Positions 43,469 through 50,533 of a stretch of 64,000 nt of DNA are shown in pieces; position 1 is the stretch's first letter, and each line of letters begins with the position of its first letter. Source of the DNA: Myxococcales bacterium (GTDB taxonomy: Bacteria; Myxococcota_A; Polyangia; Polyangiales; Polyangiaceae); NCBI GenBank assembly GCA_016720545.1, contig JADKKK010000003.1, forward strand, positions 345,516 to 409,515, in the 5' to 3' direction. Both the position numbers and the translations under genes were made by a program. Under the pieces are notes generated by a model. The model did not search any database. It saw only the letters and a program-made list of their open reading frames with translations, and had not been told where the DNA came from.

Positions 43469-44686
43469 TTAGATGTAGTGCACCTTGATCGTCTCGACGA
43501 TGGTCTTCAGGGCGCGCTTGACCACGTCGGTGCTCGGATCGCGGACGATGACGTACCCGTCGCCCTCGTAGCCGTCGCTCTTCGGGGCCCCCTCCTTCGG
43601 GAGGTCGGCCTCGACGACGAGGCGCCCCACGGCGGCGTGTGTCTCCCGCACGCCCGAGACCCCCACCACGCGCCCGCGGCCCATGCCCCGGAGGAAGGCG
43701 CAGCCGACCGCGTACTTGCGGTGCCACGGGGCGTCGAGCTCGCCGTCCACCACGGCGCGCGCCCAGCCGCGGTACGGGTCGATGTCGTGCGCGAGGCCGG
43801 TCATGCGCGAGATGTTCGCGCCCGGCGGACGCTGCGCGATCTCGCCGATCGCGAGGGTGCCGTCGCCGCGCTGGAACCACTCCATGTGCGTGAACCCGTC
43901 GTCGAGGCCGAGCGCCTCGACCGCGGCGAAACCGAGCGTGCGCGCGCCGTCGTACTCGGGCCCCTCGATGTCGCGCGGCAAGAGACACGACCACTGGATC
44001 CACGGATTCTCCAGGACCTCGAGGCAGCTCGGCAGGTAGTGCGAGAGCGAGTACACGCGTGGCTTGCCCCCGAGCGTGATGGTCTCGAAGCTGAACTCGC
44101 GGCCGCGCAGGAACTCCTCGGCGAGCACGGGCTGCTCGGCGGACACGCGCAGCCCCGCGAGCGCGGCGGACAGCTCCTCGTTCGAGCCCACGCGGAACGT
44201 GGCCTTGGCGCCCATACCCGCCGGCGGCTTCAGCACGATGGGGAAGCCCACGTCGGCCGCGAACGCGCGGGCGTCTGCCTCGTTCGTGGCGAGCTTGTGC
44301 CGCGCGACGGGCAGGCCGGCGGCGCGGAGCGCGTCCTTCATGCGCGCCTTGTCGCGGAAGAGGTCGGCCGTGCGAGGCGAGGTGCCGGGCACGTTGAACG
44401 CCGCGCGCGCCTCGGCGAGCTGCACCATCAGCGCCTCCAGAATGCCCACGATGCGCGCCGGCTGACCGTGGCGACGCCGCAGCACCTCGACGGCCTCGAG
44501 CAGCTCGCGGCCCGAGAGCGGATCGGAGACCCGCACGAGGTCGTGGTAGAGGCGCGCGTCCGCGCCCTGCGGCGGCGTGTGCACGACGCCGAGCACCCGC
44601 ACGTCGTGCAGGCCGGCGACGGCGCGGAGGAAGCGCATGGTGGTCTCGGCCGGGAAGGGCGCGACGAAGACGATGTTGCGAGGCAT
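43469..44686 (-). CDS. ATP-grasp domain protein, carboxylate-amine / L-amino-acid-ligase-like
   Basis: FRDKARMKDAL, IVLKPPAGMGAKATF, EEFLRGREFSFETI, C-terminal extension. Intact 405 aa. Confidence 0.7.
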   Translation of the reverse strand: MPRNIVFVAPFPAETTMRFLRAVAGLHDVRVLGVVHTPPQGADARLYHDLVRVSDPLSGRELLEAVEVLRRRHGQPARIVGILEALMVQLAEARAAFNVPGTSPRTADLFRDKARMKDALRAAGLPVARHKLATNEADARAFAADVGFPIVLKPPAGMGAKATFRVGSNEELSAALAGLRVSAEQPVLAEEFLRGREFSFETITLGGKPRVYSLSHYLPSCLEVLENPWIQWSCLLPRDIEGPEYDGARTLGFAAVEALGLDDGFTHMEWFQRGDGTLAIGEIAQRPPGANISRMTGLAHDIDPYRGWARAVVDGELDAPWHRKYAVGCAFLRGMGRGRVVGVSGVRETHAAVGRLVVEADLPKEGAPKSDGYEGDGYVIVRDPSTDVVKRALKTIVETIKVHYI

Positions 44687-44874
44687 GGCGCGCAGGGTGG
44701 TCCGCCGAGGGCCGCGGCGTCAACCGCCTCCGTGCGAGGCGGCCCCGCCGTCCGCCGCGCCGGCGCTCCGGGCGCAGAGCTCGCGCGAGTCGCGGTCTCG
44801 GACACGCAGAGGTTGCGTGGCGGTCTGCCTCATCGGCCGGCCCCGCGCGACCGCGGCCGTGGTACATCCTCCGG

Positions 44875-46092
44875 ATGCGCGTCGTCTTCCTTGCGCCCCT
44901 CTATCCGCCGGAGATGCAGCAGTACACGCGCGGGCTCGCCGAGGTGGGCGCCGAGGTGTACGGCGTCGCCGACACCCCGCGCGAGGCCGTGCCGCCTTCG
45001 CTGCGTCCCTACCTGCGCGACTACCTCCAGGTGCCTCGCATCATGGACGAGGACGACGTCATCGCGCGCGTGTCGCGGTGGCTCCGCGGGAAATCGATCG
45101 ATCGCGTCGTGACCAACTGGGAGCCCCTCGTCGTCACCGCGGCGCGGCTCCGCGAACGCTGGGGAATGCCCGGCATGAGCGTCGACACCGCGCGCGGGTT
45201 CCGCGACAAGCAGCTCATGAAGGACCGTGTCCGCGCGGCGGGCCTCCGCGTGCCGCGGTCGCGGCGCGTGCGTGGGGAGCGCGAGATCCGCGCCGCCGCG
45301 GAGGAGATAGGCTATCCGCTCATCGTCAAGCCGATCGACGGCGCCGGCAGCGCCAACACCTACAAAGCGACGACCGACAAGGAGCTAGACGACCTCATCC
45401 CGCGCATGCGCGGCGTGCCCGAGTGCATCTGCGAGGAGTTCATCGAAGGCGAGGAGTTCACCTTCGACACCGTCTGCATCGAGGGGCGCCCCGCGTTCGA
45501 GAACATCGCGGCCTATCTCCCCAAGCCGCTCGAGATGCGCACGGTCGAGTGGATAAGCCCGGTCATCATCACCGTGAAAGACATGTACCAGCCGCGCCTC
45601 CGCGGGGGCGTCACGCTCGGCCGCAAGGTGCTCGGCGCGCTCGGCATGGACGACGGCTTCACGCACATGGAGTGGTACCTCACCTCGAAGGGCGAGGCGG
45701 TGTTCGGCGAAATCGGGTGTCGCCCAGGCGGCGCGTGCCTCGTCGACCAGATGAACTACACGTGCGACATCGACCTGTTTCGCGAGTGGGCGCGCGTGGT
45801 CTGCTACGGGCGCTTCGAGGCGAGCACCAAGCGCAAGTACAACGCGGGCATCGTGTTCAAGCGCGCGCTCGGCGAGGGGCGTATCACGCGCATCGAGGGG
45901 CTCGACGCGTGGCTTCGCGCGTGCGGCGACTGGGTGACCGACGAGCAGCTGCTCCGGCCCGGCACCCCCCGTCGAAACTGGAAGAACACCTTGCTGTCGG
46001 ACGGGTGGGTGCATGTGCGCCATCCCGACTGGGCCGAGGCGCACCGCATGGCCTTCGCGGCGGCCTCCGGCATTAAAATGTTCGCGGAGTAG
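44875..46092 (+). CDS. ATP-grasp domain protein, paralog of 43469..44686, divergently transcribed
   Basis: FRDKQLMKDRV, LIVKPIDGAGSANTY, EEFIEGEEFTFDTV. Same N-terminal pre-domain layout (MRVVFLAPLYPPE.. vs MPRNIVFVAPFPAE..). Confidence 0.7.
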   Translation: MRVVFLAPLYPPEMQQYTRGLAEVGAEVYGVADTPREAVPPSLRPYLRDYLQVPRIMDEDDVIARVSRWLRGKSIDRVVTNWEPLVVTAARLRERWGMPGMSVDTARGFRDKQLMKDRVRAAGLRVPRSRRVRGEREIRAAAEEIGYPLIVKPIDGAGSANTYKATTDKELDDLIPRMRGVPECICEEFIEGEEFTFDTVCIEGRPAFENIAAYLPKPLEMRTVEWISPVIITVKDMYQPRLRGGVTLGRKVLGALGMDDGFTHMEWYLTSKGEAVFGEIGCRPGGACLVDQMNYTCDIDLFREWARVVCYGRFEASTKRKYNAGIVFKRALGEGRITRIEGLDAWLRACGDWVTDEQLLRPGTPRRNWKNTLLSDGWVHVRHPDWAEAHRMAFAAASGIKMFAE

Positions 46093-47093: not shown

Positions 47094-47371
47094 CCCTCGA
47101 CTCTCCCAGGCTTCGGGCGGATCGTCGAGCAGAGAGAGCGCACGACCTCACGTGGAGGCGCATGACGCCATCCCCCCCGCAGCCCCCGCAGCCCGAACCC
47201 GGGGCGGCGCGCGAGCCGCGCGGGCAACATGTTAGTGCAACATACACACAACGCGGCCCCGAAGGCGCCGCGCGCTCGCGCACGGGAAGCGTCCGAGGTC
47301 ACGCGGCTACGCCTCCAGGGTGTCCCTCGCCAGCCACGCGAGGGCGGCGGCGAGGCGCGCCGATCCGACGC

Positions 47372-47626
47372 CTACTTGACGAGGCGATCGACCAACGCGA
47401 CGTACGCCGTCATGGCGCTGTCCTTCGAGGTGCCCTTCTTGGCCGCCCATGCGTCGAACTTCGCGCGCCCCTTGAAGTCCATCATGCCGGGGCGCGAGCC
47501 CGTCACGTCGCCCGCCGAGGCCTGCTTGTAGAGCGCATAGAGCTCAAGCAGTTGGTCGTTCGAGGGGGCCTGAGTGAGGGTCTTCACGCGGGCCTGGGCG
47601 TCTTGGAAGGAGGCAGCGAGATCCAT
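47372..47626 (-). CDS. Acyl-CoA-binding protein
   Basis: LLELYALYKQASAGD...KFDAW...KG (ACBP signature). Confidence 0.85.
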   Translation of the reverse strand: MDLAASFQDAQARVKTLTQAPSNDQLLELYALYKQASAGDVTGSRPGMMDFKGRAKFDAWAAKKGTSKDSAMTAYVALVDRLVK

Positions 47627-47709
47627 TGCGCGGGAGCCTATCAGGATCCCGCGCGGCGCGGTGGGAGCGGTGCCCGGCGCCTAAATAGGTCGCCTTTCCG
47701 ACGCTGGGC

Positions 47710-49176
47710 CTACTCGCTCGGCGGCTGGATGCTGCGGTAGATGCGCTCGTAGCTCGCGACGCGTTCGGCCCACCCGAAGCGGAGCCGCATGCCGTTCTGT
47801 TGGAGCCTCCGCCAGCGCGCGCGGTCCTCACCGCGGCCGGTGCCCCAGGTGCGGAGCGCCTGGTCGACGCCGTACGCGAAGCCGGGCTCATCGAAGTGAT
47901 CGAACACGAAGCCGTTGCCCTCGCCGCTGCGTCGGTCGAAGGCCGTGACCGTGTCGGCGAGGCCGCCCGTGCGATGCACGACGGGCGGGGTGCCGTAGCG
48001 CAGGCTGTACATCTGGTTCAGACCGCAGGGCTCGTAGCGCGAGGGCATGAGGAAGCAGTCGGAGCCGGCCTCCACTTTGTGCGCGATAGGCTCGCTGAAC
48101 GCCGCGCGATAGGCCACCTGGTTCGGGAACCGGCGGGAGAGACCGCGAAAAAACTCCTCGTATTTCGGCTCACCGGTGCCGAGCACCACGAGCTGCACGG
48201 GGCGACGCGCCAGCACGCGAGGCAGCACGCCGAAGCAGAGGTCGAAGCCCTTCTGCCAGGCGAGGCGCGACACGATGCCGAACACGAGGACGTGCGCGTG
48301 GTACCTGAGCCCCGCGGAGCGCACGAGGTCGCGCTTGCACACCTCCTTGCCCTCGAGCGAGTCGATCGCGTAGCGCTGGGCGAGGTGCGGATCGGTCTCG
48401 GGGCTCCAGTCGTTCTCGTCGACGCCGTTCAGGATGCCGAACAGCACGTTTTCGCGCTCACGCAGGAAGGCGTCGAGCCCGGCGCCGTGCTCCGGTCGCT
48501 GGATCTCCTTCGCGTACGTGGGGCTCACCGTGGTGAGCGCGTTCGCGTAGAGAATGCCCGTGAGCAGGAAGTTGATGCGCCCCTCGCGGAGCTGGTCTTG
48601 GTGGAAGTGGTGGGCGGCCGCGCCGAGGCCCGTCTCCCCCAAGATGCGCGCGTCGAAGGAGCCCTGGTGGCCGATGTTGTGAATCGTGAGCACGCAGCGG
48701 GTGCGCTCGAAGAGGCGATCCCACGCGAACGCGGTCTTCAGGAGCAACGGCAAGAGGGCCGTCTGCCAGTCGTTCGCGTGGACGATGTCGGGCGCGAACC
48801 CGAGGCGCTGGCAGAGCAGCAGCGACGCCCACGACAAGACGATGAAGCGAAGGTGCTCGTCGGCGTCTTGGGTGTAGATCGAGGGGCGGTCGTAGAGCCC
48901 CGGACAACGCACGAAGTAGACGGGCGCGCGGGTCCCCGGGAACACGCCCTCGAGGATCGACACGATCACCCGCGTGCCGCCGAGCTCGATCGAGAGCTCG
49001 CTCACGGCGGTCGTGAGGTCGGGCGCGTGCGCGTGCACTCGCGGGTAAAGCGGCATCACGACGCGTACGTCGTGACCACGCTCCGCGAGCCGCTGCGGCA
49101 GCGCGCCGGCCACGTCGCCGAGGCCCCCGGTCTTCGCGAAGGGGGCGACCTCCGAGGCGACGAAGAGCACCCTCAC
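47710..49176 (-). CDS. glgA: Glycogen synthase (GT5)
   Basis: GTG start VRVLFVASEVAPFAKTGGLGDV, HANDWQTAL, SRYEPCGL. Confidence 0.9.
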   Translation of the reverse strand: MRVLFVASEVAPFAKTGGLGDVAGALPQRLAERGHDVRVVMPLYPRVHAHAPDLTTAVSELSIELGGTRVIVSILEGVFPGTRAPVYFVRCPGLYDRPSIYTQDADEHLRFIVLSWASLLLCQRLGFAPDIVHANDWQTALLPLLLKTAFAWDRLFERTRCVLTIHNIGHQGSFDARILGETGLGAAAHHFHQDQLREGRINFLLTGILYANALTTVSPTYAKEIQRPEHGAGLDAFLRERENVLFGILNGVDENDWSPETDPHLAQRYAIDSLEGKEVCKRDLVRSAGLRYHAHVLVFGIVSRLAWQKGFDLCFGVLPRVLARRPVQLVVLGTGEPKYEEFFRGLSRRFPNQVAYRAAFSEPIAHKVEAGSDCFLMPSRYEPCGLNQMYSLRYGTPPVVHRTGGLADTVTAFDRRSGEGNGFVFDHFDEPGFAYGVDQALRTWGTGRGEDRARWRRLQQNGMRLRFGWAERVASYERIYRSIQPPSE

Positions 49177-49365
49177 GAGCGAGGGTCCCAGGTGGGAGCG
49201 GGGGCGCCGCGCGAGGCGGCGGGACGCGGTACGGGAGACGAAGGCGAGACGGAGTGGGCACACGCGCGCGGGGCGCGGGCGAGAGAGGAGGCGTCGCTCA
49301 TGGGCGGCCGGAGCATCGCACAGAGTCGCGCCCCCTCTCACCGAAACCCGCAGTAAGCGCGCCGA

Positions 49366-49841
49366 TCAGGGCTTCCTTTTCGGCGCGGCGGCCTTCTTCT
49401 TCGGCGCGGCCTTCTTCGGCGCGGCGGCCTTCTTCGGCGCGGCGGCCTTCTTCGGCGCGGCGGCCTTCTTCGGCGCGGCCGCCGGCGCGGCTTGCTCCCA
49501 TATGCCGAGCGCCGCGCCCGAGGGATCGAGGAAGACGCCGAGCGCCCCCATGTTGGGGATGGGCTGGTACTCGACCAGGATCGTGGCGCCGCGCTTCTTC
49601 GCCTTCGCGATGGTCTTCTTCACGCTGTCGACCTGCACGTATGGCAACCACTGCTTCGGCGCGCCGGGCGTCGGGTTCGGGCCCATACCGCCCCCAGCCC
49701 CGGGGCCGTTGCCGACGCCGAGCATGGTGTAGCCCGGCATAGGCGACGTGAACTCCCACGCGAAGAGGCCCTTGTAGAACTTCTTCGAGGCTGCGAGGTC
49801 GGAGGTGTTGAGCTCGATGTGAACGAATGCATTCGGCATGG
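49366..49841 (-). CDS. VOC (glyoxalase/bleomycin-resistance fold) protein fused to a Lys/Ala/Pro-rich histone-H1-like tail: (AAPKKA)n
   Basis: MPNAFVHIELNTSDLAASKKFYKGLFAWEF... then PKKAAAPKKAAAPKKAAAPKKAAPKKKAAAPKRKP. Encoded by a 21-bp DNA repeat x4. RBS GGAG upstream. Confidence 0.7.
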
Positions 49842-49914
49842 TGTCTCCCCTTCCAAAAATGGACCCCGAAACGTACGCAAGACCCGACCGGCCGTCCATG
49901 GTGGCCTCGCGCGG

Positions 49915-50445
49915 CGCGGCGCGGGAGCGCCCGGCGTGCGATGGCGGCCACCGTTCATGGACGACACCTCGCCTTGGGCTCGGGGCGTGTCTCCACGGTC
50001 TCCACGAGGTCACCGCGCGAACGCCGATCGCCGAGCTCAGCAATCACGAGCACCTTCGTGAATGACTAGCGCTACTGCGAGACTTCGCACGAAGCGCGCC
50101 AAGTCGATCCACGCGCCGATCACGCTTGGCTTACGAGGGAGAACCATTCGAGTGTTCGAAGTCCGTACACGGGATGTTCGGAAGCGGTACGTACGCGCGC
50201 TCTCCGTTCAGGGGTGTGGCGTGGAAAGACCAGCTCGTCATGCAGCGGAGCTCGCCCCTCCGGCTTGCGAGCGCGAGTCGCGCCGGATCGCTCTTGCTCG
50301 CACGGCGCCGATGTCTGGGGTCCCCGAGCGACGAGGGGGCGGACGGAACGCGGCCATCGAGCGCGGCGCGGGAGCGCCCGGCGTGCGATGGCGGCCACCG
50401 GGCGTGTCTCCAGGAGGTCACCGCGCGCGCGAACCCCGGGCCCCA
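49915..50445. repeat. Two direct repeats (about 110 bp at 49915-50030, about 90 bp at 50358-50445) sharing a 39-bp identical core GCGCGGGAGCGCCCGGCGTGCGATGGCGGCCACCG plus GGGCGTGTCTCCA..AGGTCACCGCGCG. They sit in a 690-bp divergent intergenic region.
   Basis: Seen directly. Confidence 0.7.
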
Positions 50446-50533
50446 AGACTCGACAATACCCTGTCACATCAAACACTTGCGGAGCCTCACGCGCGCGCCG
50501 TTCGCCTGGCACTCGCCGTGCTCATGGAGGCGC

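Follow-up and report, generated by a model that had tools for sequence, protein, structure and literature searches.

The window analysed here is a stretch of 64,000 nucleotides from a Myxococcales bacterium (assembly GCA_016720545.1, contig JADKKK010000003.1, positions 345,516 to 409,515 of the forward strand). The element under study is a complete gene on its minus strand, at 49366..49839, whose product is a VOC protein of one module followed by a Lys/Ala/Pro tail at the C-terminus. The gene is real and in frame: translation of the open reading frame (ORF) gives 157 codons from an ATG at 49839 to a TGA at 49366-49368, and the end coordinate of the initial annotation, 49841, lies two bases too far. 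Direct reading of the sequence places a Shine-Dalgarno-like GGAAGGGGAGA 4 nt upstream of the ATG (49844..49854, minus strand), and the orthologs open with the same N-terminal residues (MPNAF/MPNPF). A scan of 49100-50300 detected neither a sigma-70-like promoter nor an intrinsic terminator, which is the expected outcome because the genome is at 72% GC. Neither a signal peptide nor a sorting motif can be seen in the protein sequence, and the product would be a small cytoplasmic protein of two parts, the VOC module and the tail. This architecture, a VOC fold followed by a tail like that of histone H1, had been proposed in the initial annotation, and both the Pfam match of the domain and the composition of the tail agree with it.

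The VOC domain occupies residues 1-116 (49492..49839, minus strand) and consists of two beta-alpha-beta-beta-beta units that form one non-swapped cup. It matches the Glyoxalase profile of Pfam (PF00903) over residues 5-110, with 38 bits against a cut-off of 20.6, and its N-terminal half (residues 5-43 only) also matches Ble-like_N (PF22677; 33.7 bits, cut-off 24.5). The AlphaFold2 model of residues 1-116 has a predicted local distance difference test (pLDDT) score of 87.7 and shows eight strands (5-12, 30-34, 37-40, 49-54, 63-69, 86-94, 98-104, and 110-115) and two helices (15-25 and 73-82) in the order of a VOC module. Membership of the VOC superfamily was thus found twice, by a profile above its threshold and by the paired-module cup of the model. 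Every one of the top Foldseek matches in the PDB is a VOC protein, the closest being 2r6u (template modelling [TM] score 0.84), followed by Rv0577 (3oxh, TM 0.78) and AbxF. A phmmer search of the PDB gives Rv0577 of Mycobacterium tuberculosis as the closest solved structure by sequence (E=4e-24, with both of its modules aligned), and after it AbxF (8stb, 8eo9, 9jt3) and RHA04853 of Rhodococcus (2r6u). Rv0577, a homolog of KbpA of Streptomyces, and RHA04853 belong to the same VOC branch and have the same non-swapped cup, and the phmmer alignment shows a C-terminal DP.G...W motif common to Rv0577 and the studied protein. Rv0577 and KbpA are built differently: they have two tandem modules in about 250-260 residues and no basic tail, whereas the studied protein has one module of 116 residues and a tail. 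The NCBIfam model of KbpA (NF053614) is matched below threshold, with 30 bits against a cut-off of 250; the homology with the Rv0577/KbpA family is therefore real at the level of the domain and extends neither to the tandem modules nor to a full KbpA match. This homology gives no function. Other members of the superfamily include the mitomycin-binding MRD (1kmz), which aligns with the studied domain at TM 0.68, and glyoxalase I (GloA of Escherichia coli), which has the same superfamily fold and whose domain-swapped structures superpose poorly (TM ~0.4). Database curators have evidently come across proteins of the studied kind already, under the name "VOC family protein".

To describe the ligand site we used a family alignment of 34 members, five of which are untailed. 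Positions L10, F21, Y22, F26, W28, G50, W64, Y67, and V70 are invariant in it, as are G84, G98, D105, P106, G108, and W114; H7 and E9 are almost invariant, and E115 is variable (E/Q/A/S/K). An aromatic-rich cup is thereby kept (H7, E9, Y22, W28, Y37, W64, Y67, D105, and W114). The metal ligands of E. coli GloA (H5, E56, H74, and E122, on strands beta-1, beta-4, beta-5, and beta-8) were located by aligning family alignment A1 with the GloA sequence using hhalign: H5 corresponds to H7, E56 to a Gly, H74 to a gap or to Y67, and E122 to G112. Glyoxalase I identity was rejected since only one of the four ligands is retained (H7), and the labels "glyoxalase" and "detox or sensor" given to the protein by the initial annotation find no support in this site. 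Sequence comparison places the domain in the COG3324/Rv0577-like branch of the VOC fold and outside glyoxalase I. As the metal site of glyoxalase I is absent, the module probably binds some small molecule or transforms it without the canonical metal.

The tail comprises residues 117-157 (49369..49491, minus strand) and reads AAPAAAPKK(AAAPKK)x3AAPKKKAAAPKRKP; taken from the preceding Q, it runs QAAPAAAPKK(AAAPKK)x3 and then AAPKKKAAAPKRKP. In its 41-42 residues the fractions of Lys/Arg, Ala, and Pro are 0.33, 0.45, and 0.19, for a net charge of +14. The full-length AlphaFold2 model shows it without secondary structure, with mean pLDDT values of 48-62 in blocks of 10 residues, and it is predicted to be an intrinsically disordered polycation. 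The DNA that encodes it contains an exact tandem repeat of 18 nt, GCCGCCGCGCCGAAGAAG, at 49406..49479 on the minus strand (74 nt, 4.1 copies in a periodicity scan), whose unit is the six codons GCC GCC GCG CCG AAG AAG. Around it lies a degenerate array at 49375-49483, for which Tandem Repeats Finder (TRF) gives a period of 18, 6.1 copies, and 89% matches, and a separate repeat search found four families (D1-D4), all spaced 18. The longest stretch of period 21 spans 11+21 nt only; the "perfect 21-bp x4" repeat reported initially is thus wrong, the period being 18 bp by all three methods. No other K/A/P-rich stretch was found in the six frames of the 64-kb window, where the tail of this gene is the sole instance and is not a product of chance. 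The tail is disordered and rich in Lys, Ala, and Pro, as is the C-terminal domain of linker histones H1/H5, a likeness of composition only: the protein has no match to the Linker_histone winged-helix domain of Pfam at E<=1, its structured part being a VOC fold, and none to the chlamydial Hc2 profile (PF07382, HC2) at the same threshold. It also shows the terminal tandem repeats of KK with Ala/Pro that characterise tails of the HBHA/PAKKA type, namely AAAPKK x4 with degenerate flanking copies.

The distribution of the tail among orthologs was assessed with the domain alone. A homolog search with the full-length protein pre-selects by shared words, which biases it towards tails, and returned almost only tailed proteins; we therefore repeated it with the domain, without a word index, against 1.84 billion cluster representatives. 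The best 150 matches of this search comprise 111 two-module Rv0577-like proteins (~250 residues) and 39 single-module ones, and 27 of these 39 closest single-module relatives continue past the domain at the C-terminus for 15 residues or more, with a net charge of at least +5. A genome scan with a domain-only alignment (A2), using one genome per species and reading each gene to its stop codon, gave 80 orthologous loci, of which 52 have an in-frame tail. Tails are present in 25 of the 26 loci from Polyangiaceae, Polyangiales, Polyangia, and Sorangium (the exception is cut by a contig end), in all 15 loci labelled "Myxococcales", and in the single loci of Labilithrix luteola, Haliangiales, and Sandaracinaceae; in these groups they measure 14-122 residues. 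Over all tailed loci the length is 12-122 residues (median 38.5), with a net charge of about +0.4 per residue. The two loci of Archangium have basic stubs of 7-10 residues only. Outside these groups, 10 of the 11 loci of Acidobacteriota are untailed, the remaining one, from Holophagales, having a tail of 18 residues, and so are all those of Eremiobacterota (including Vulcanimicrobiota; 3 loci), Verrucomicrobiota (2), Desulfovibrionales (2), Nitrospirae (1), Elusimicrobiota (1), and Alphaproteobacteria (2). Identity to the query is 47-51% for the untailed orthologs, which stop 2-8 residues past the final Trp (W114). This distribution indicates that the tail is lineage-specific and was added in the myxobacterial lineage.

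Base composition was considered as the cause of the tail and rejected, because several untailed orthologs lie in DNA of 63-72% GC and the neighbouring genes are free of tails. A six-frame scan of 565 kb, covering the window and all the loci, found 56 K/A/P segments, and all 56 are this gene's own tail; the tail is therefore not a general habit of these genomes. The domain itself differs in charge between the two sets of orthologs, with a mean net charge of -0.6 in tailed and -3.8 in untailed ones.

Tail sequences cannot be aligned between lineages, and their repeat units differ: AAPKK in the closest relative (whose domain is 81% identical), AGAKK x6 in Labilithrix, and PAAKK x4 or AEPAKK x4 in others. 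Composition and charge density are kept and the sequence is not, a pattern that in these comparisons indicates selection on charge and composition. Turnover is also seen within the species. The metagenome contig Ga0073904_10043304 is 99.76% identical to the window over 2908 nt (47109-50016) and comes from the same species; the two differ by 4 substitutions and one indel of 3 nt. This indel is an in-frame polymorphism at 49393..49395 (minus strand) by which one Lys codon is missing from the metagenome contig (KKK vs KK), and a synonymous substitution adjoins it at 49390. Two of the five differences thus fall inside the 123-nt tail tract (binomial P ~0.016, computed by hand on this small sample). 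The DNA of the tail evolves fast, probably through in-frame slippage of short GC-rich repeats. The initial annotation had predicted a site of variable copy number; this is supported in kind, given the one-codon indel between strains and lengths of 12-122 residues between species with different units, but no whole 18-bp unit was gained or lost between the two strains. Another contig, of 1366 nt (JAHZTT010528609.1, from GCA_020049675.1), is 99.9% identical to window 49719-50461 for 743 nt; near codon 40 of the VOC gene it breaks off and runs into a fragment like SMP-30/gluconolactonase, which yields a chimeric protein (P0039). The contig, part of a very fragmented assembly, is probably a chimera produced by that assembly, and it shows that the same species was present in that sample.

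The first, tail-biased search had also drawn VOC proteins of other subfamilies, tailed at either the C- or the N-terminus. One group of N-terminally tailed proteins (P0046, P0047, P0050, P0051, and P0201-P0317) has a domain that starts with VVHWEVQA. We searched for its members with the tail-less domain of P0050, which resembles PF18029 (Glyoxalase_6) and is ~30% identical to the studied protein. This gave 1949 matches at E<=1e-10, and nearly all of the best 120 are proteins of 136-196 residues with a domain of ~110 residues. We examined 31 full-length members, and each has at its N-terminus a Lys/Ala/Pro/Arg tail of 26-87 residues with a net charge of +12 to +29; some have a precomputed Pfam match to HC2 (PF07382, histone-H1-like), and the organism, where the source names one, is "Polyangia bacterium". 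Judging from these sequences, two different small VOC families of one bacterial class have gained the same kind of tail convergently, at opposite ends. Neutral expansion of repeats explains this poorly, and it is the strongest indirect argument for a function. The search for fusions of VOC domains with KAAAPKK-type tails in other Myxococcota, which the initial annotation had proposed, has thus revealed both that the tail is the rule in Polyangia and that a second VOC subfamily is tailed at its N-terminus. A third VOC subfamily (P0040-P0045 and P0048; N-terminus MSH.VNWF.IQGPNG, ~30% identical) has Lys/Ala-rich tails at the C-terminus; it came solely from the tail-biased search.

Tails of this type have been studied in several other bacterial proteins. 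In HBHA, the heparin-binding hemagglutinin of mycobacteria, the C-terminal domain, 39 residues of Lys, Ala, and Pro with KKAAPA x3 and KKAAAKK x2, binds heparin and heparan sulfate (PMC3293801); HBHA also co-localises with the nucleoid, and deletion of its tail abolishes its sequence-independent binding to DNA (PMC10665949). This tail is nearly identical to the one studied here (41 residues, AAAPKK x4), and both are at the C-terminus of a small protein without signal peptide, although the structured part is a coiled coil in HBHA and a VOC fold here. Since HBHA is from Actinomycetota and the studied protein from Myxococcota, the two tails are analogous rather than homologous. PAKKA repeats that interact with DNA occur in mycobacterial Ku and Hlp/HupB (PMC3553676). 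AlgP and PhaF of Pseudomonas have KPAA tails, which bind DNA and position granules relative to the nucleoid, of polyphosphate for AlgP and of polyhydroxyalkanoate (PHA) for PhaF, and the AlgP tract is, like the one studied here, a mutational hot spot (PMC9239181). In a myxobacterium, the H1-like domain of Anaeromyxobacter CarD is reported (Garcia-Heras et al. 2009, cited in PMC2919716) to be able to stand in for the DNA-binding domain, of HMGA type, that M. xanthus CarD has. Like the studied tail, those of Ku, Hlp, AlgP, PhaF, and CarD are low-complexity Lys/Ala/Pro extensions found on unrelated proteins in particular lineages. They differ in what they extend: Ku, Hlp, and CarD already work on DNA or RNA polymerase, and the tails of PhaF and AlgP sit on a granule-binding or helical domain, whereas here the tail sits on a VOC fold. 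We found no description of a VOC or glyoxalase domain fused to an H1-like tail in the literature, a search of limited coverage and hence weak evidence of absence. Both components are of known kinds, and the VOC fold as cargo of an H1/HBHA-like tail appears to be new.

By analogy with these proteins, we lean towards reading the tail as an anchor that holds the VOC module to a cellular polyanion, most likely the nucleoid. It would bind electrostatically and independently of sequence, most probably to chromosomal DNA, and would thereby concentrate the VOC module on the nucleoid. Many VOC proteins dimerise, and if this module does so the protein would carry two anchors. Several points weigh against such an anchor. 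To our knowledge, VOC domains have no role with nucleic acids, and most of the precedent tails extend proteins that already act on DNA. The stubs of Archangium mean that a long tail is not needed everywhere in the phylum, and a clustering of the neighbouring genes across the 80 loci reveals no conserved neighbour that points to a pathway. The sequence establishes a polycation, for which DNA is not the sole candidate partner: tails of the HBHA and AlgP type bind heparan sulfate (PMC3293801) or associate with polyphosphate granules (PMC9239181), and the same type of tail associates with lipid inclusions in other bacteria.

The best surviving alternative is one in which the tail anchors the protein to another polyanion, such as polyphosphate granules, RNA (ribosomal or other), or matrix or prey polysaccharides that are acidic or sulfated. 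AlgP, with its KPAA tail, is found on polyphosphate granules (PMC9239181), the HBHA repeats KKAAPA and KKAAAKK, nearly identical to those of the studied tail, bind heparin and heparan sulfate (PMC3293801), and HBHA reaches the surface without a signal peptide, which would suit the variant involving surface polysaccharides. We nevertheless consider this alternative rather unlikely: apart from the lack of a visible signal peptide or sorting motif, genes for polyphosphate, ribosomes, or exopolysaccharides are not conserved beside the gene, and HBHA itself is nucleoid-associated through its tail (PMC10665949).

A further possibility is that the protein is an architectural component of the nucleoid, in which the VOC fold is a scaffold for dimerisation, two basic tails bridge or condense DNA, and ligand binding is vestigial. 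In its favour are the small size and strong overall basicity of the protein, the gain of tails by two unrelated small VOC families in the same class, and HBHA, a coiled coil with the same tail, which works in this way (PMC10665949). What makes it improbable is the cup, where L10, F21, Y22, F26, W28, G50, W64, Y67, D105, P106, G108, and W114 are invariant whether the protein is tailed or not, which speaks for continued selection on the ancestral ligand site.

Slightly less probable still is a tail without any role in binding, either a tolerated by-product of slippage-prone GC-rich repeats or an "entropic bristle" that enhances solubility. The tract is indeed a near-perfect tandem repeat that varies by one codon between strains and from 12 to 122 residues between species. 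Yet the Lys-rich frame is always kept, the charge density stays near +0.4 per residue, and the tail persists across deep myxobacterial divergence (domains ~50% identical). All neighbouring genes in 0.5 Mb lack one, as do orthologs in equally GC-rich genomes, and another VOC family acquired a tail independently, at its other end. The class-wide fusion, its specificity to this gene, and its two origins on VOC families together point to a selected function.

Finally, the suspicion raised in the initial annotation, that the tail is an artefact of frameshift, assembly, or gene calling and that the true protein has a conventional VOC C-terminus near residue 116, is excluded for practical purposes: orthologs of other phyla do stop there and a database entry with a mis-framed tail exists, but the fold of the AlphaFold2 model closes at W114-E115, at the end of strand beta-8, so that the tail replaces no missing piece of it, the other two frames of the minus strand have neither a nearby stop nor a VOC-like C-terminus, the GC content at third codon positions (GC3) is 0.92 in domain and tail alike, the same tail recurs in the metagenome contig of the same species, where the length differs by a multiple of three, and the tail is in frame in the 52 of 80 loci given above. 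The mis-framed entry is an ortholog of 331 residues (P0075) whose sequence after the domain, GAEEGRQEGCAEEGCEEG..., resembles the tail repeat read in the +1 frame (RAEEGRRAEEG). It is likely, from this resemblance, a frameshifted or mis-called entry, which is the reverse of the artefact that had been feared.

Should the tail indeed bring the VOC module to the nucleoid, it would offer a simple, evolvable means of directing metabolic or protective activities towards the chromosome. The known Lys-rich tails belong to proteins that handle DNA (HU/Hlp, Ku, and CarD) or tether granules (PhaF and AlgP), and the cargo here is a VOC fold. Such a placement would also open a first way into what the large COG3324/Rv0577-like VOC branch does. 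A broader proposal, which we put forward tentatively and regard as doubtful, is that Polyangia recruited at least two different small VOC proteins to the nucleoid through independent H1/HBHA-like tails, one C-terminal and one N-terminal, and thus possess a class of DNA-tethered proteins that bind or detoxify small molecules and act on the chromosome. Proteins of this kind could sequester or inactivate genotoxic electrophiles or DNA-damaging natural products at the chromosome, a protection that would suit soil predators and prolific producers of secondary metabolites. The family is a clean natural series, with tails of 0 to 122 residues on one conserved domain, for the study of how disordered polycationic tails evolve and how their length tunes binding.

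The genomic context gives no functional clue. Downstream on the same strand lie genes for glycogen synthase (glgA), an acyl-CoA-binding protein, and an alpha/beta hydrolase, and the upstream neighbour is a divergent gene for a hypothetical protein. The nearest Polyangiaceae relative retains the order VOC, glgA, acyl-CoA-binding protein, hydrolase, and more distant tailed members do not; a link with glycogen is therefore not supported. We sought a conserved partner by all-against-all clustering of the neighbouring ORFs of the 80 loci and found none common to more than 7 loci, so the gene behaves as a stand-alone unit. An antisense reading of the VOC gene, tail included, gives a plus-strand ORF of 162 residues (49254-49742; RRPSSARRPSS...), which recurs in 19 loci only because it overlaps the VOC gene.

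Some features of the surrounding DNA can be added. In the glgA ORF as listed (47710-49341, minus strand), some 55 Arg/Pro-rich residues precede the conserved motif VRVLFVASE...KTGGLGDV; judging from this motif, the true start is probably near 49170, which would leave ~190 bp between the VOC gene and glgA. Downstream of the hydrolase, at 43469-46092, are two divergent ATP-grasp genes, and the same pair is present in the nearest relative. The gap of ~700 bp that separates the VOC gene from the divergent hypothetical gene contains a perfect direct repeat of 40 nt (49914-49953 and 50361-50400), present in two copies in the window against 0 expected by chance. Similar segments extend it at 49976-50035 and 50393-50447, with a short insertion in copy A, and the repeat could represent a regulatory or mobile element that was duplicated.

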